Origin: Escherichia phage vB_EcoM_G37-3
Direction: 5' to 3' (one strand)
Sequence record: MK327941.1
Length of the DNA stretch: 64,000 nucleotides
The position numbers and the translations under genes were made by a program. This document shows positions 51,333 to 64,000 of the stretch, piece by piece. The notes beneath the pieces are model-generated. The model was given only the letters and a program-made list of their open reading frames with translations, was not told the DNA's origin and ran no database searches. How positions within the stretch are numbered: the stretch's first letter is position 1; each line of letters opens with the position of its first letter.

Positions 51333-51755
51333 TTATTGGTCTACCTTCAAAACAACCGCCGACATTTTACCCGCCAGTCGTTTTGGATTCTCTATAATCA
51401 TTCGGCAGCATAGACCGTGATATGGCTTACCCTCTTCGATTAGATCTACTGTCATCCCGATCCACATGTTACCGTCAGTAATTTCTAATCGATTCGGTCG
51501 GTCTTCCATTTTCAGGAAGTCGAAGATCTCCGGCAAACGAGTTTCTATCTTATTGAATAGTTCCATTGTCTTATGTTCATCGATATGACGATCGGTTAGA
51601 CGGTCGATCATATGCGGACTAAAGCGAATGAAAATATACTCACCATAACCATCATTCAAGCACTTTTCTTTGATCTTCGCATTGGTTTTGCGCATTTCGG
51701 TTTCGAAGAATCTACGCAGCTTACTACGGCGAACATGTACGTTAATTGTTTCCAT
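51333..51755 (-). CDS. hypothetical protein (140 aa)
   Basis: Internal ATG at 51755 behind AAGGA RBS. Confidence 0.45.
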   Translation of the reverse strand: METINVHVRRSKLRRFFETEMRKTNAKIKEKCLNDGYGEYIFIRFSPHMIDRLTDRHIDEHKTMELFNKIETRLPEIFDFLKMEDRPNRLEITDGNMWIGMTVDLIEEGKPYHGLCCRMIIENPKRLAGKMSAVVLKVDQ

Positions 51756-51759
51756 TTTA

Positions 51760-52095
51760 TTATCCTTTCTTAAACAAATTGCGAATCCAGTATACAAACG
51801 GGATTTCTTTAAACTTGAACTTGTCAATAGTTAATTCTTTAGTAGCAAGATGAATACCATAAGCATCATGTGTCACGATATGCCATTTTCTATAGTCCAA
51901 ATGTGAACAACCGTCTGGATCTAGGTTAATAAGAGTTTCTCGCTCACTAGGATTATTTTTCCACAATTTTGTAATAGGATCGCACATAATTCGACCTAGC
52001 GTACCATGAATAATCTCACAACGGTAAAGTTTTCCAGCAGTGAGATAGGCGCACCCGTCATAGTCTGTATAAACAAACACTTCTTTAACACTCAT
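51760..52095 (-). CDS. small protein, GCSHL-motif tandem paralog A
   Basis: DPDGCSHLDYRKWHIV; AAGGAGTATTAAA leader after an early promoter. Confidence 0.45.
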   Translation of the reverse strand: MSVKEVFVYTDYDGCAYLTAGKLYRCEIIHGTLGRIMCDPITKLWKNNPSERETLINLDPDGCSHLDYRKWHIVTHDAYGIHLATKELTIDKFKFKEIPFVYWIRNLFKKG

Positions 52096-52123
52096 TTTAA
52101 TACTCCTTTGTTTCGATGGGGGT

Positions 52124-52152
52124 ATATTACTACCCCCGTTTTGTTGTGTCAA
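52124..52152 (-). promoter_or_regulatory. early promoter (PeSL-type) TTGACA-N17-TAATAT
   Basis: -10 inside GGGGGTA/TACCCCC inverted repeat; approximate. Confidence 0.5.
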
Positions 52153-52398
52153 CTACTTTTTCAAGATTTTTTTAATTGCGTTCCAAAGACCTTTATTCTC
52201 AGGTTGTTTTGGTTCTTCGATCAGTGTCCAGGTTCGACCGTCTAAGTGTGCACAATTTTTAAGACAAATAAAAATCTGGTGTCCTTTATCATCACGGATA
52301 TAACCACTATTCGCAAATCTTTCATGTGGTGTATATTCATACAGTGTATTTGGTGTAATATACTTGCGGTTACTATAAGGTGTCATCACATACATCAT
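52153..52398 (-). CDS. small protein, GCSHL-motif tandem paralog B
   Basis: ICLKNCAHLDGRTWTLI; ATGA overlap with paralog C. Confidence 0.45.
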   Translation of the reverse strand: MMYVMTPYSNRKYITPNTLYEYTPHERFANSGYIRDDKGHQIFICLKNCAHLDGRTWTLIEEPKQPENKGLWNAIKKILKK

Positions 52399-52589
52399 GG
52401 TACTAACTCCCATTTATCACCGCGAAGATGAGAACATCCACCATCAAGAAGGATCGTAATACGAAACCCCGCATCATCTTCAATATACCCGATAGTCGGT
52501 GGATTTTCGTCGTCTCGTGTCGGGGTAAAATCATACATCTTTCCGGGCGTAATATCTTGTCCTTTATTACTATTGGTATAAACTTGCAT
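52395..52589 (-). CDS. small protein, GCSHL-motif tandem paralog C
   Basis: LLDGGCSHLRGDKWELV; GGAGA RBS. Confidence 0.45.
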   Translation of the reverse strand: MQVYTNSNKGQDITPGKMYDFTPTRDDENPPTIGYIEDDAGFRITILLDGGCSHLRGDKWELVP

Positions 52590-52610
52590 TTTCTTAATCT
52601 CCTATATTAA

Positions 52611-53309
52611 CTAACCACGGGTATAGTGTTCCAGAACAACGGTCAGATGAATATATTCTAATAAATCCTTCCAAAAGTCAACATCTGGTTCTTCCGGCAT
52701 ACCGTTTTTCTTTGCCTCTTCACGCGCGAGTTTAACACGCTCGTAGAGATCTTTCAATTCTTCCCGCACATTATCAAAGGTTCTTTCTCCTAACTTACAC
52801 GCTAAAATAGAAGAACGTCGCGCGAGCGGGAATTGTAGATCACCAGTTTGATAGATTTCAAGTAGCTGATAACCAACACGCAGAGCATGAGAAAGATCTT
52901 TCCAGTTACTGAAATACTTTTCAGATTTTGCTACCTGCTTTTTGAGATAACCAGACAAACCCCACATCCCAACATGATAGAATTTATCGCGATGTGTTCT
53001 GATGTATTCCCATTCTCTGGAGGATTCAATCAACATGTTACTAGGCGCGTGCACCATGTCAATAGCGCCGATATCGCCTTTACATGCCAGATTGATAAAC
53101 CGTTTTAGACTGAACATATTAACGTCAATATCGTCTTTGGTGTTCTTGATACCTTGACCGCTAGTGCTTTGGTCATAGTGTTCTTTCATCGATCCTAAGA
53201 TAATTTCTTTCGCAGTCGGAACAAAGATACCACGATAATCTTTATCTGAATTTTCAGTATCAAGGCCGTATAAGTGAGATCCGAAGACCATTTTAACCAT
53301 AGTATGCAT
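52611..53309 (-). CDS. Pol-beta superfamily nucleotidyltransferase, function unknown
   Basis: 232 aa; NTase signature GS-x9-DxD (FGSHLYGLDTENSDKDY) and downstream DIDV; helical C-terminal half; GAGGG RBS. Confidence 0.6.
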   Translation of the reverse strand: MHTMVKMVFGSHLYGLDTENSDKDYRGIFVPTAKEIILGSMKEHYDQSTSGQGIKNTKDDIDVNMFSLKRFINLACKGDIGAIDMVHAPSNMLIESSREWEYIRTHRDKFYHVGMWGLSGYLKKQVAKSEKYFSNWKDLSHALRVGYQLLEIYQTGDLQFPLARRSSILACKLGERTFDNVREELKDLYERVKLAREEAKKNGMPEEPDVDFWKDLLEYIHLTVVLEHYTRG

Positions 53310-53327
53310 AATTAAACCCTCAGTTGA

Positions 53328-53921
53328 TTAAACGTATTCAGCGACAACATTGTGTTTAAAATTACCACTTCTTTTTGGATTTGGATTTTTCAATCGACTA
53401 TGTATTAAATTTTTGTTATATCCGGTTGCTTTAGACGCTTCTCCAATACTTTGATAAACAACACCATCAACACGAATCGGACGAGACTTATTAAACAGTT
53501 TATTCAATCCGGTATCATATGCATGGTTTTGGTTTTCTTGTCTTGTTGCGATCTCAAGATTCCAAACACAATTACAAGATTTTACCCCACTTTTATGATT
53601 AATTTCAAGCCCTTCACAATCACCTATAAAGTGTTCAGCGACTAGTCTATGAATATAGCGATATTTCTTAGTTTCCCCGTCATGCAAGCATACATTATAA
53701 TAACCATCACCAGCGCGTTTAGGTCGGAGTAGTTTACCTTTAACACGTTTTATAGTAGGGAACTCACCAAATTGATTTCGCTGGATAAAAGGAATCTCTC
53801 GGTCAAGTGAACGGATTCGACCATAGTTAGATACTTGATAAAACCCCCCATAGCCCTTAATCTGCTTCCATATCTCGGGGATTTCAACACCATCAATAAC
53901 AACAAGTTTAAGTTCTTCCAT
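53328..53921 (-). CDS. HNH homing endonuclease (NUMOD4-like plus HNH_3-type)
   Basis: YQVSNYGRIRS, HRLVAEHF...NHKSG...NLEIATRQENQNH; GAGGTG RBS. Confidence 0.85.
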   Translation of the reverse strand: MEELKLVVIDGVEIPEIWKQIKGYGGFYQVSNYGRIRSLDREIPFIQRNQFGEFPTIKRVKGKLLRPKRAGDGYYNVCLHDGETKKYRYIHRLVAEHFIGDCEGLEINHKSGVKSCNCVWNLEIATRQENQNHAYDTGLNKLFNKSRPIRVDGVVYQSIGEASKATGYNKNLIHSRLKNPNPKRSGNFKHNVVAEYV

Positions 53922-53933
53922 ATATCACCTCAT

Positions 53934-53964
53934 AAAAATAAAGCCAACCCTTTCGGATTGGCTT
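53934..53964 (-). terminator. intrinsic terminator
   Basis: Minus strand AAGCCAATCCGAAAGGGTTGGCTT followed by TATTTTTAT. Confidence 0.6.
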
Positions 53965-53969
53965 GTGTA

Positions 53970-54386
53970 TTACATAGATTCCGTAAAGGTACGGGTGATA
54001 ATATCAAGTTGCTGTTCGCGTGTCAAGGCATTGAAGCGGGTAGCATAACCACTGATTCGAATTGTAAGCTGCGGGTACTTTTCAGGATTTTCTAACGCAT
54101 CAAGAAGAGTCTCCCGACGCAGTACGTTCGCGTTTAGGTGCATTCCCCCTTCGATAATCGGTTTACCCGCATCGATTTCGCAAATTCGAAAATTGGTCTT
54201 ATGCAGCGCCAGCGAATCGACGTCTTCTGCGGTGATCACATGGTCTTCTGCGAAAGTTTTACTAACAATTACTTTAGCGCCGATCAGTGCTTTCGGTTCG
54301 GATACCAGAATCATAGGCGCGAAGTGTCCACCAATAATAGTACCTTTATGCTCACCTTTCATGATTTGAATTGCTTTAAATTCCAT
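53970..54386 (-). CDS. autonomous glycyl radical cofactor (GrcA/YfiD-like; T4 Y06I-type)
   Basis: C-terminal [15 protein letters not shown]...[37 protein letters not shown] is near-identical to the GrcA glycyl radical domain. Confidence 0.85.
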
Positions 54387-59993: not shown

Positions 59994-60236
59994 TCATAGA
60001 TCACAGAGCCATCTTAAAGCACCACATAAAGCGATCAAAAGACTAGGTATAAACGAGACTAAAACAAGACTACAAAAATCATCTAAGGTAACGCCGGAAT
60101 AGCTACCTACTGTAACAACACCGATCATCAGACACAGAAAGAAAACAAATGCAATCAGAAACAAAGTATTGCTAAACAGTTTAGTGATCATTAGACACCC
60201 CACGACGATCAATTTCAAAAACTTTTTTACCATCAA
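59994..60236 (-). CDS. small membrane protein (start uncertain)
   Basis: Hydrophobic ORF overlapping upstream ORF; track start reads TTG. Confidence 0.4.
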   Translation of the reverse strand: MMVKKFLKLIVVGCLMITKLFSNTLFLIAFVFFLCLMIGVVTVGSYSGVTLDDFCSLVLVSFIPSLLIALCGALRWLCDL

Positions 60237-60384
60237 CGAAGCATGTCACAACTGCCTCGTTGACTTCCGCAAATTGTTGTGTTACCCACTTAAGGTCAGA
60301 GCGAAACAATGTTCTATTAATAACAAATGTTTTACCTTTCTTATCCATACCCATAAATTTTGCTTTAACCATATCCAATTCCAT
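60181..60384 (-). CDS. hypothetical protein (67 aa)
   Basis: ORF on the common strand. Confidence 0.4.
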   Translation of the reverse strand: MELDMVKAKFMGMDKKGKTFVINRTLFRSDLKWVTQQFAEVNEAVVTCFVDGKKVFEIDRRGVSNDH

Positions 60385-60393
60385 ATTATCACC

Positions 60394-60552
60394 TTATTTG
60401 CTAATCGCTAAACCCAATCCGAAGAGAGCACCCGATGCTACAGTATACCCGAAAGTTTCAAAGGAAGTAAAGATATCTAAGCCGCCAGCTAACAGAGTTG
60501 CTGTAAACAGAGTACCAGCTACGAACATAAAAGTTTTACCGATAAATTTCAT
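60394..60552 (-). CDS. small membrane protein (52 aa)
   Basis: Below track cutoff; AAGGAGAATCAAA leader after an early promoter; Gly-rich hydrophobic. Confidence 0.35.
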   Translation of the reverse strand: MKFIGKTFMFVAGTLFTATLLAGGLDIFTSFETFGYTVASGALFGLGLAISK

Positions 60553-60583
60553 TTTGATTCTCCTTTCGTTTGTTTGTGGGGGT

Positions 60584-60612
60584 ATCTTACTACCCCCGTT
60601 TCATGTTGTCAA
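60584..60612 (-). promoter_or_regulatory. early promoter (PeSL-type) TTGACA-N17-TAAGAT
   Basis: -10 inside GGGGGTA/TACCCCC inverted repeat; approximate. Confidence 0.5.
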
Positions 60613-60618
60613 CTATTT

Positions 60619-60993
60619 TTAAGAATATTTTACTTCGTCTACAATATCTTTCATGACATTGATTTCCATTCCGGTCAGAACACGTTGGAACATGTGCTGC
60701 ACATACGCTTTCAGGTATTCATTTGATGGCTTGCTATCGAAAGTCTTTTTAGTGTAGTAGTCATCACCGAAAGCTACTGTAATTACATTTTCGTCGTCGT
60801 TCCAAGCGATATAAGCAAATTTGCCGTTATCCCAGAAGCGAGCACTAATTGCTACTTTTGTTGAATCGAATCCTACTTCGCTGTGAGATTCAAGAACTAC
60901 TTGCGTGCCAGTTTCTTTATGAATGTAGTAGCGGGATACTAAGTCAAAGTTACGGGTGTAGTGACATTCAAATTTATCTTTAAACATCATCAT
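60619..60993 (-). CDS. hypothetical protein (124 aa)
   Basis: ATG at 60993 behind TAGGAGAATCAAA leader; upstream part of track ORF overlaps the promoter. Confidence 0.5.
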   Translation of the reverse strand: MMMFKDKFECHYTRNFDLVSRYYIHKETGTQVVLESHSEVGFDSTKVAISARFWDNGKFAYIAWNDDENVITVAFGDDYYTKKTFDSKPSNEYLKAYVQHMFQRVLTGMEINVMKDIVDEVKYS

Positions 60994-61059: not shown

Positions 61060-61102
61060 CACCTAAAAACAAAAAACCCCGAAAATTTTTCGGGGTATAA
61101 AA

Positions 61103-61573
61103 TTACAGTTTGGTCGTCCACTCCAGGTCTAGATCTTCGACATACTCATGAGATCGGACAATCTCTAAATCGAACTCTAGGTCAGTGCCAAATTTACGCG
61201 CACCAACATCATAAGAAAGCGTGATATGCGGTACATATTCAGGATAATCCCACGTCGCACCTAAAGCAGTGCCGATATCGTGTCTGAATTGCATGTAGTC
61301 GCTTTCAAATGCCAACACAAGTGCATTAGTACCGGATTGAGTTTCAAACACTTTCAGATGACACAGAGAGCCTAAGAACTTCTCCCCTTCTTCTGGGATA
61401 AACGGAACATAGACACGAGAATATAAGATAGTGCTATGCAGTTTATCACGAGGAACGGCATTAGGCAGATCGTAGAACTCCTGCAATTTTTCAATGCGGT
61501 CTAGTGTATCCTCAGTGAATTTAACCGCCGCATATGTACCTTTAACGGATTCTCTAAACGGGGTCATAATCAA
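61103..61573 (-). CDS. 57B: 2H phosphoesterase, T4 gene 57B (Acb1) homolog
   Basis: 156 aa; two H-x-[TS]-x motifs (HSTIL, HITLS); sits downstream of 57A and gene 1 as in T4. Confidence 0.7.
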   Translation of the reverse strand: MIMTPFRESVKGTYAAVKFTEDTLDRIEKLQEFYDLPNAVPRDKLHSTILYSRVYVPFIPEEGEKFLGSLCHLKVFETQSGTNALVLAFESDYMQFRHDIGTALGATWDYPEYVPHITLSYDVGARKFGTDLEFDLEIVRSHEYVEDLDLEWTTKL

Positions 61574-61836
61574 GCCTCCGTGATCAGTTCTACTTCCTCT
61601 TCTGCGTCTTCCGCTGCTTCGTCTTTAGGGAGAAGTGCTTTCACTTCTTCGACAATAGCATCAAGGGAAACAGTCCCGTTTTCGTCTGGCTGAATACCCA
61701 GAATGCGTACCAGTTCCATCAATACACGCTCACGATCTTTCAGTTGGCCTTCTAAGAATGCGGCCTTTTCTTGAGTGTCAAACAGACGTACTTTCAGGAC
61801 ATTAATCATTTGTTCATGCTGATTGGACATATTCAC
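61570..61836 (-). CDS. 57A: tail fibre assembly chaperone gp57A-like coiled-coil protein
   Basis: 88 aa, heptad-rich acidic coiled coil; between gene 1 and 57B. Confidence 0.55.
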   Translation of the reverse strand: MNMSNQHEQMINVLKVRLFDTQEKAAFLEGQLKDRERVLMELVRILGIQPDENGTVSLDAIVEEVKALLPKDEAAEDAEEEVELITEA

Positions 61837-61862: not shown

Positions 61863-62519
61863 TTAAATGTTCGCGAGAATCGCGCTTTCAAATTCTTCTA
61901 ATGTACCATTATTTATGATAATGGTTTCACCGTCAATAGGCAAAATTCCTTTTTCGGTGGAGTGAGTCGATACAATACCAGTATCACGATGAATATGCAA
62001 CACCTTAGCACCCATAGCACGCATGAGAGCAATTTCAATAGGCTGACGCACATCAACCACTACAAAATACCCTTCTTCATTTTTGCGCTTCATAAACTCA
62101 TTCACGAAGAGATTACACCAATAAAGCGGATTGATCAAGTTAACCATTATATCAGTACCGAGAGTGGTTAACATGAGACGAATAGACCAGACGTTATTAT
62201 GTTTTTCGCCGATCTCATTAACGACCTTGTAAATCTCAGCCAGACGATCACAAGTAAAGGAACTACCGCCATACTTCGAATCTAGCATAAGCAGACACTG
62301 AATAAACCACTTATGCGCGGTATAGGTATCAATACCTAGATCGGCTTCTCTGTCACGCCCCAACCCGTCAAAGTCAAGATAAGTCAGACCTAAGTCTGGT
62401 TGACATTCGCACAATATTTCTTTGATCGGTGCTGCCAGTTGATAACTATGTCCATCAATGATTAACGCGGCAGTGTCTTTTCCTACTCGCTTTTTACCAC
62501 AAAGTGCAATCAATTTCAT
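61863..62519 (-). CDS. 1: deoxynucleoside monophosphate kinase (gene 1)
   Basis: 218 aa; P-loop GKKRVGKDT; colinear with T4 gp1. Confidence 0.88.
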   Translation of the reverse strand: MKLIALCGKKRVGKDTAALIIDGHSYQLAAPIKEILCECQPDLGLTYLDFDGLGRDREADLGIDTYTAHKWFIQCLLMLDSKYGGSSFTCDRLAEIYKVVNEIGEKHNNVWSIRLMLTTLGTDIMVNLINPLYWCNLFVNEFMKRKNEEGYFVVVDVRQPIEIALMRAMGAKVLHIHRDTGIVSTHSTEKGILPIDGETIIINNGTLEEFESAILANI

Positions 62520-62534
62520 TATATAAGCCTCTTA

Positions 62535-63125
62535 TTACTTTCTAAAAGCAGGGTGCATAGCTTTAATACCTTCCACCCTCTGACGATCCGCCGCCTGAAT
62601 TGCTGGGCGAGGAACGATCAGTTGACCATCACGTTCAATGCTCATTGTTTTAAAGGGAAGAATTGCAGTACACACCAGAGATTCATGCATATCATCGGTG
62701 TATGTTAACTCAAGTTCCCCCAATTGTGAACACCAACAACCATAAAAGTTAAAAGTGCACACAATGTTACGTCGTTCGTTGTCCATCATGTGAACTTGAA
62801 CGGCTTCCGGCATTGAATCCTTCCACGCAGTGGAGTTACCGTTATTGTAGTCTACTATAGAAAGCATCCATGTGTAAAGGTTTAGATAGCTTTCCAAATG
62901 CTCATCGACAATAAACCGGACTACCAACGGGTCAAACTCCACATGACTAGACGGATAATCAGCGACCGCCAAACCATATTGTCCAGCAACTTGCTTAGTC
63001 GGTGGAATGGTTATAGCCGGAAGTGTAACACCTTGAGCATTTAAAGTAAAGCCTTTTGTTAGTTGTCCATCTGGAATATTGATCTGCCAGTTGCTGGGGT
63101 TAGCATAGTTAAAGAGATTAGACAT
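62535..63125 (-). CDS. hypothetical protein (196 aa), possibly gp3-like tail completion protein by position
   Basis: Lies where T4 has gene 3 next to gene 1; late-promoter-like TAATAAATA upstream; no motif recognised. Confidence 0.35.
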   Translation of the reverse strand: MSNLFNYANPSNWQINIPDGQLTKGFTLNAQGVTLPAITIPPTKQVAGQYGLAVADYPSSHVEFDPLVVRFIVDEHLESYLNLYTWMLSIVDYNNGNSTAWKDSMPEAVQVHMMDNERRNIVCTFNFYGCWCSQLGELELTYTDDMHESLVCTAILPFKTMSIERDGQLIVPRPAIQAADRQRVEGIKAMHPAFRK

Positions 63126-63315: not shown

Positions 63316-63570
63316 ATGACAGAAGACATTTTGTTAAAACTCTATGATCGTCTGGATAACGAATTAGCAACATTGCGGGGTGAAGTTCTCTATTTGTCTA
63401 AATGCAATACAGATCTGCTTAAGCAGATTGCAGAAAGGGATGATCAAATAAAATCCCTTTCAGGTGCATTACGTGATCGCGACAAGGCATTAGAGATTTT
63501 ACAGCGTGTTACCAATAAGGAAGAATTAAAAGACTTCTTACATGGTTATGCTCATGCTATCGATCTATAA
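63316..63570 (+). CDS. hypothetical coiled-coil protein (84 aa), plus strand
   Basis: AGGA RBS; AT-rich upstream region; followed by a terminator hairpin. Confidence 0.55.
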   Translation: MTEDILLKLYDRLDNELATLRGEVLYLSKCNTDLLKQIAERDDQIKSLSGALRDRDKALEILQRVTNKEELKDFLHGYAHAIDL

Positions 63571-63571
63571 T

Positions 63572-63600
63572 AAAAAAGCCCGTCATTGACGGGCTTAATC
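63572..63600. terminator. bidirectional intrinsic terminator
   Basis: AAGCCCGTCATTGACGGGCTT hairpin with T/A runs on both strands, between convergent genes. Confidence 0.6.
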
Positions 63601-64000
63601 TTAACTATTGATCATATCAATGACGTTTTGTAGCTCTGATATGGATAGCGTTTCTGTATATCCATCGGGCATATCTTCTTTACTAACATAGAAACCTTTA
63701 TACTTTTTCTTTATTGCACATTCCATAGAAAGAGCATCATCACCGTTATCGTATTTTTTATAAAATGTCAACTCATGACGAAATATAGATTTTGAAGATT
63801 GGTTTTGTATTCTTTTTATTAATCTGTTGTTGGTTATACCAAATTTTATAGCAACCGCAACATCTTCTTTGTATAAAGTTTGTACATAAATGTATGCAGG
63901 TTTATTCCTCTTAAATCCATGATTGCTACACATAGGGCAACCGCTATTTTTTGATACGTAGTCTCCTAAGTTTGGCGTAAATTCATGTCCGCTACTACAA
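63601..64000 (-). CDS. GIY-YIG-like domain protein, 5'-partial (runs off window edge)
   Basis: AYIYVQT...KFGITNN resembles a GIY/YIG pair; reading frame stays open upstream of Met at 63933 to position 64000. Confidence 0.4.
   Translation of the reverse strand, partial: CSSGHEFTPNLGDYVSKNSGCPMCSNHGFKRNKPAYIYVQTLYKEDVAVAIKFGITNNRLIKRIQNQSSKSIFRHELTFYKKYDNGDDALSMECAIKKKYKGFYVSKEDMPDGYTETLSISELQNVIDMINS

Follow-up and report, generated by a model that had tools for sequence, protein, structure and literature searches.

Gene 57B of Escherichia phage vB_EcoM_G37-3, very probably the Krischvirus orthologue of the T4 anti-CBASS nuclease Acb1

This locus raises the question of what is encoded directly after gene 57A in Escherichia phage vB_EcoM_G37-3, and whether the gene departs from the known members of its family. 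The window analyzed here is a stretch of 64,000 nucleotides from sequence record MK327941.1, for which a sequence-only reading had proposed a 57B-type 2H phosphoesterase, resembling Acb1, at 61103-61573. With high confidence, from sequence comparison, the gene can be taken as the Krischvirus (RB49-like coliphage) orthologue of T4 57B, i.e., the Acb1 anti-CBASS nuclease. The gene and the family, structure and mechanism of Acb1 are all already known, and this copy is an ordinary, catalogued one. The following features define the locus.

61103..61567, minus strand: acb1 (gene 57B), coding sequence of 154 aa plus stop (ORF, Pfam PF23474, PDB 7T26).
61575..61579, minus strand: Shine-Dalgarno-like GGAGG within the 3' end of 57A (direct sequence reading).
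61570..61830, minus strand: gene 57A, tail fibre chaperone (Pfam GP57, E = 2.6e-6; PHROG 1002, E = 2.1e-26).
61863..62519, minus strand: gene 1 (dNMP kinase), which anchors the synteny upstream (Pfam DNMK, 229 bits, E = 5.3e-68).
62535-63125, minus strand: gene 3, in the same gene order as in T4.
61076..61096, minus strand: intrinsic-terminator-like hairpin, ACCCCGAAAAATTTTCGGGGT then TTTTTGTTTT (terminator scan: 9 pairs, 5 G-C).
61908..61936, minus strand: sigma-70-like promoter match TTGACG-17-AATAAT, 10/12 (promoter scan; inside the 3' end of gene 1).
62546-62518, minus strand: sigma-70-like promoter match at the start of gene 1 (promoter scan, consensus match only).

The interval 61103-61573 had been proposed with no strand given; an ORF was found there, on the minus strand, but its upstream boundary needed correction. 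The mechanical ORF opens at TTG 61573, which overlaps the 57A stop codon. An ATG (61567-61565) is placed two codons inside this ORF, 7 nt after the GGAGG at 61579-61575 by direct reading of the sequence, and the same ATG is the annotated start in RB49, Phi1, JSE, G2494, SSG23 and JK32, which give the gene a length of 465 nt. Because of the GGAGG 7 nt upstream and these six related annotations, acb1 probably starts at the ATG at 61567 rather than at 61573, and the protein is probably 154 rather than 156 aa.

Gene 1 and 57A are both directly upstream of acb1 and on the same strand, so that the T4-like placement noted earlier was confirmed: T4 57B occupies the same place, directly after 57A and gene 1. 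The order 3-1-57A-57B is common to the window, T4, JSE, RB49, Phi1, Mokit, MP1, AsFcp_4, K571 and 05F, and beyond T4 and Krischvirus it was found in five more Straboviridae genera. Gene 57A is annotated as 261 nt in related genomes. With 2 nt between its stop codon and the acb1 ATG, the two genes may be co-transcribed and closely coupled in translation. The terminator-like hairpin, with a T-run, starts 6 nt past the acb1 stop codon and carries a terminator annotation in phage G2494 (ARNOLD, -12.3); the hairpin (61096-61076) likely marks the end of the 57A-57B transcript. The promoter match at 61936-61908, by consensus only, could drive 57A-57B. The exact T4 late promoter, TATAAATA, was absent upstream of and within the 3-1-57A-57B block.

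The family assignment was carried by profile and structure matches. In a profile search, the protein matched Pfam PF23474 (Anti-CBASS protein Acb1) with 174.4 bits (gathering cutoff 27, E = 1.5e-51), residues 9-152 of the protein covering profile positions 1-143 of 144, and the earlier description of an Acb1-like, 57B-type 2H phosphoesterase is thereby borne out at full length. The product also matched PHROG 755 (E = 9.8e-55). The sole sequence match in the PDB was Acb1 of Erwinia phage FBB1 (7T26/7T27, E = 1.8e-43, 142/144 chain residues), with 52.8% identity to the window protein over 144 columns; identity to T4 Acb1 (NP_049750.1, from NC_000866) was 46.8% end to end. NCBIfam had no model that matched the product, and as this library targets bacterial and archaeal proteins the absence is uninformative. 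A single-sequence AlphaFold2 model of the 154-aa protein gave a mean pLDDT of 37.6 and a pTM of 0.37, too low to inform on the fold. A compact fold of the 2H phosphoesterase type, with its lid at the C terminus, is predicted indirectly, via homology to the solved 7T26; the 53% identity to that structure extends over the whole length and takes in the C-terminal part that carries the lid Trp.

Two H-x-[TS]-x motifs had been described in the protein, and both were located (H44-S-T46-I and H114-I-T116-L), with no others present. The H-x-[TS] pair alone was rejected as evidence, since at least 2 copies occurred in 8/59 stop-free stretches of 120-200 aa in the window; the match exceeds chance because of the full-length Pfam Acb1 and PDB 7T26 matches, not because of the motif pair. 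Alignment of the catalytic histidines with those of T4 Acb1 had been set in advance as the test of the assignment. In T4 Acb1 the active-site tetrad is H44/T46/H113/T115, and its mutation inactivates the enzyme (Hobbs et al. 2022, PMC9117128); T4 H44/T46 aligned with H44/T46 of the window protein and H113/T115 with H114/T116. The base-stacking aromatics of T4 Acb1 are Y12, W74, F107 and W147, and E141 contacts adenine N6 (PMC9117128). The T4 57B sequence has each of these residues at its published number, and by pairwise alignment they correspond to Y12, F74, Y108, W150 and E144 of the window protein. Both substitutions, F74 and Y108, are aromatic for aromatic, and the same residues are found in the crystallized, active FBB1 enzyme. 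By alignment, then, the named functional residues of T4 Acb1 are conserved or conservatively replaced.

An alignment of 8 sequences was made, covering Tequatrovirus, Krischvirus, the FBB1 enzyme, Hadassahvirus, Gualtarvirus, Angelvirus, a Vibrio T4-like phage and Slopekvirus. There were 22 invariant columns, including Y12, K42, H44, T46, H114, T116, E141 and E144, and positions 74 and 108 were aromatic in 8/8 of the aligned Straboviridae sequences. The Slopekvirus homologue (Klebsiella phage 05F; 1159-1782 of the compared segment) is 207 aa long with a C-terminal extension of ~55 aa, and Lys replaces its lid Trp. In Pseudomonas phage psageK9 (compared segment 1-1554), an Acb1-like part corresponding to query residues 38-123 is found within an ORF of ~600 aa.

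T4 Acb1 and the window protein (152 vs. 154 aa) have the same HxT/HxT tetrad, Y12, E141 (here E144) and lid Trp, whereas W74 is replaced by F and F107 by Y, and the window protein carries insertions of 1 residue (N81) and 2 residues (E131-F132). The closest solved structure is FBB1 Acb1 (PDB 7T26 apo, 7T27 with 3'3'-cGAMP), which has F74 and Y108 in common with the window protein but comes from another phage genus and host and differs by two residues in length ahead of the last strand and lid. Because identity to the characterized enzymes is ~47-53% and because of the N81 and E131-F132 insertions, the substrate range could differ in detail from that of T4 Acb1.

A larger departure is unlikely, in which the Krischvirus Acb1 clade would have shifted its substrate range relative to T4 Acb1 and may also bear the whole burden of nucleotide-signal depletion. 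The shift is suggested by F74, Y108, N81 and E131-F132 near the lid together with an identity of only 47%, and it might mean, for example, that signals spared by T4 Acb1 are cleaved, or that decoy nucleotides of Panoptes-type guards are avoided. The second part is raised because no Acb2 (Vs.4) homologue was detectable by BLAST. A tblastn search with T4 Acb2 returned no homologue in the window or in RB49 62000-161999 (best 19.6 bits); the search took the window as standing in for the first 62 kb of RB49 and covered 62-162 kb from RB49 itself, together all but the last 2 kb of that genome. The T4 Acb2 neighbors vs.1, regB, tk.4 and vs.6 match the window at 49.8-54.4 kb, and small ORFs in the syntenic regB-vs.6 gap (window 51750-53970) had no Pfam match. 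At BLAST sensitivity, Acb1 may be the only recognizable cyclic-nucleotide countermeasure in this phage group. Two larger genes lie between regB and vs.6.

52611-53309, minus strand: RlaP-family nucleotidyltransferase (DNA polymerase beta-like, 'RNA repair pathway'), 232 aa (Pfam, E = 3.4e-14).
53328-53921, minus strand: NUMOD4+HNH homing endonuclease.

Database names point to a different function. PHROG 755 and RefSeq records name the protein 'RNA ligase', and, since the 2H fold is common to Acb1 and RNA-end enzymes, the gene might instead encode a generic 2H RNA-end enzyme (a LigT-like 2'-5' RNA ligase or 2',3'-cyclic phosphodiesterase) serving RNA or tRNA repair, for which cleavage of cyclic oligonucleotides would not be the real role. 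The corresponding Pfam profiles did give matches, but weak ones below threshold (2_5_RNA_ligase2, PF13563, 19.4 bits against a cutoff of 27; LigT_PEase, PF02834, 14.1 against 23.3), so that the Acb1 profile scored 174 bits and the RNA-ligase profiles no more than 19. Conservation of the base-stacking residues and of those that read the adenine of cGAMP also argues against an RNA-end role, as do the separate RNA-repair genes of the phage (pseT and rnlA are annotated in RB49) and the age of the 'RNA ligase' label, which predates the 2022 characterization of T4 57B (PMC9117128). We consider this explanation very unlikely; by profile comparison, kinship of the window protein with LigT and 2'-5' RNA ligases is at the superfamily level only. 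The 'RNA ligase' annotation was rejected as a label that reflects superfamily-level similarity.

Acb1 has its 2H fold and its pair of HxT motifs in common with other 2H phosphoesterases (LigT, CPDase and the poxvirus cGAMP phosphodiesterases), none of which gave a significant sequence match to the window protein. The poxvirus cGAMP phosphodiesterase is reported to be a structural and functional analogue of Acb1 that can replace it in phage (summarized in PMC12064943); the lid is N-terminal in the poxvirus enzymes and C-terminal in Acb1 (PMC12064943).

As an Acb1 orthologue, the window protein would be a small, metal-independent 2H phosphoesterase acting after infection. Its targets would be the second messengers, cyclic di- and trinucleotides, that the CD-NTases of host CBASS systems produce, caught in a U-shaped pocket in which Y12, F74, Y108 and W150 would stack the bases and E144 would read adenine N6, the ligand then being covered by the C-terminal lid. 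Catalysis would fall to the H44/T46/H114/T116 tetrad: the 2'-OH of adenosine would attack the 3'-5' phosphodiester bond, and the ring would open on the 3' side of adenosine in two steps, giving first a 2',3'-cyclic phosphate and then a linear product that ends in a 3'-phosphate. Deprived of their signal, CBASS effectors such as Cap4, Cap5 and CapV would stay off and abortive infection would not follow. By homology, the enzymatic activity and anti-CBASS effect are expected of the window protein, and its predicted substrate range would include 3'3'-cGAMP, cUA, cAAA and cAAG, and not cGG.

This expectation draws on published biochemistry of relatives. T4 57B was identified as a cGAMP-degrading activity through activity-guided fractionation, 3'3'-cGAMP and cAAA were cleaved by T4 Acb1 as well as by each of 9 further homologues, and lysates of T4-related phages degraded CBASS signals (PMC9117128). 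For T4 Acb1 and the 9 homologues, the cleavage of cyclic di- and trinucleotides that contain adenosine needs no metal (PMC9117128). A screen of 57 phages included the Krischvirus phage vB_EcoM-G2494, labeled 'RB49' (PMC9117128). A literature search for Acb1 together with RB49 or Krischvirus returned no paper in the library searched. An Acb1-family enzyme could also be directed mainly at other cyclic oligoadenylates (type III CRISPR cA3 or decoy nucleotides) rather than at CBASS signals, given that Acb1 degrades cA3 and that type II Panoptes monitors cA3 and senses phages expressing Acb1 (PMC13577387). This role is compatible with an anti-CBASS nuclease, as the chemistry and family are the same; taken as an alternative, it is extremely improbable, for deletion phenotypes of T4 acb1/acb2 have been shown against CBASS operons (PMC9117128; bioRxiv 10.64898/2026.03.04.709575) and no sequence feature separates the window orthologue from those tested against CBASS.

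The 2-kb segment around acb1 matched 58 phage records at 95-99.5% identity, all of them RB49-like Krischvirus coliphages, with Escherichia phage AV108 as the best match (99.5%). The Acb1 protein was 100% identical in ~50 of the 58 records, including RB49 (NP_891697.1), Phi1 (YP_001469470.1) and JSE (YP_002922201.1); gp57B of these three phages has the same locus and no protein difference, with 10-11 synonymous differences in the DNA. This identity upholds the earlier view that a known anti-defense gene is conserved here, with no novelty. For phage G2494 the 2-kb segment matched at 99.0%, and D129N is the single difference between its Acb1 and the window protein.

Synonymous/non-synonymous differences from the window acb1 were 10/0 in JSE, 10/0 in RB49, 11/0 in Phi1, 11/0 in JK32, 5/1 in G2494 and 12/2 in SSG23, and 15/19 polymorphic sites across these six genomes were at third codon positions. 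Because the differences between genomes are almost all synonymous, the comparison indicates that acb1 is under purifying selection, the pattern of a working gene. The prospect of a decaying or inactive remnant, held only through linkage to 57A and gene 1 and brought to mind by split or disrupted copies in phages Cognac and Bas43, is negligible, and decay is excluded for the window copy because its ORF is intact with all catalytic residues present and the identical protein is conserved in ~50 genomes.

Two relatives showed altered copies. In phage Cognac (MZ504877; 1331-1794 of the compared segment), a 1-nt deletion after codon 64 splits the gene, and 57B is annotated as two short ORFs; in phage TB34 (OX001802), the match to Acb1 is confined to residues 23-147. 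These disruptions could represent natural loss of acb1, or sequencing or assembly error. Natural disruption of acb1 is known in Bas43, and acb1 loss is also reported for Panoptes escapers (PMC13577387).

Among the Krischvirus copies, the database names are 'gp57B conserved hypothetical protein', 'RNA ligase' and 'hypothetical protein'. The labels 'RNA ligase' and 'hypothetical protein' are outdated in ~58 Krischvirus records and should read 'anti-CBASS nuclease Acb1'. RB49-like coliphages, a group with some members in phage-therapy collections, probably have the means to evade CBASS systems whose signals are adenosine-containing nucleotides, and they may be exposed to guards that sense Acb1 activity, e.g., type II Panoptes (PMC13577387). 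No new question is raised by this copy: the mechanism, structure and family of Acb1 were established in 2022, and the same protein sequence entered GenBank with the RB49 genome.

The surroundings of the 3-1-57A-57B block contain further genes and signals, listed from the downstream to the upstream side.

60181-60384, minus strand: dmd (Pfam Dmd, E = 8.4e-15), two genes downstream of acb1, after the orphan gene and the 52-aa ORF.
60394-60552, minus strand: hydrophobic ORF of 52 aa, possibly membrane, after the orphan gene.
60576-60599: hairpin by the orphan gene.
60619-60993, minus strand: orphan gene of 124 aa, directly downstream of acb1, where T4 has ipI.
61059-61031, minus strand: near-consensus sigma-70-like promoter of the orphan gene, TTGACA-17-CATAAT (promoter scan).
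63316-63570, plus strand: ORF of 84 aa with coiled-coil-like sequence, between gene 3 and the endonuclease ORF; hypothetical in JSE and RB49.
63576-63596: strong hairpin AAGCCCGTCAATGACGGGCTT with T-runs, after the 84-aa ORF.
63601-64000, minus strand: ORF ending at 63601 and running past the window edge.

The downstream neighbor of acb1 differs between the two phages, being ipI in T4 and an orphan gene exclusive to Krischvirus in the window. The orphan was found only in the 58 Krischvirus records, with at least 95% identity in all; it had no Pfam, NCBIfam or PDB match, and PHROG 15253, to which it belongs, is listed as 'unknown function'. T4 ipI is an anti-restriction gene, and by position alone the orphan is a candidate anti-defense gene. 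The dmd product is an antitoxin against RnlA/LsoA-type toxins. Together acb1, the orphan, the small hydrophobic ORF and dmd form a compact cluster here; dmd of T4 is at a different locus.

On the upstream side, the ORF at 63601-64000 corresponds to a JSE 381-aa 'endonuclease' between genes 3 and 2, and RB49 has no gene there. Its presence in JSE and absence from RB49 suggest a mobile homing endonuclease, inserted in some members of the genus and missing from others. The 84-aa ORF at 63316-63570 is the only plus-strand gene in that stretch, and the hairpin at 63576-63596 that follows it could terminate transcription in both directions.
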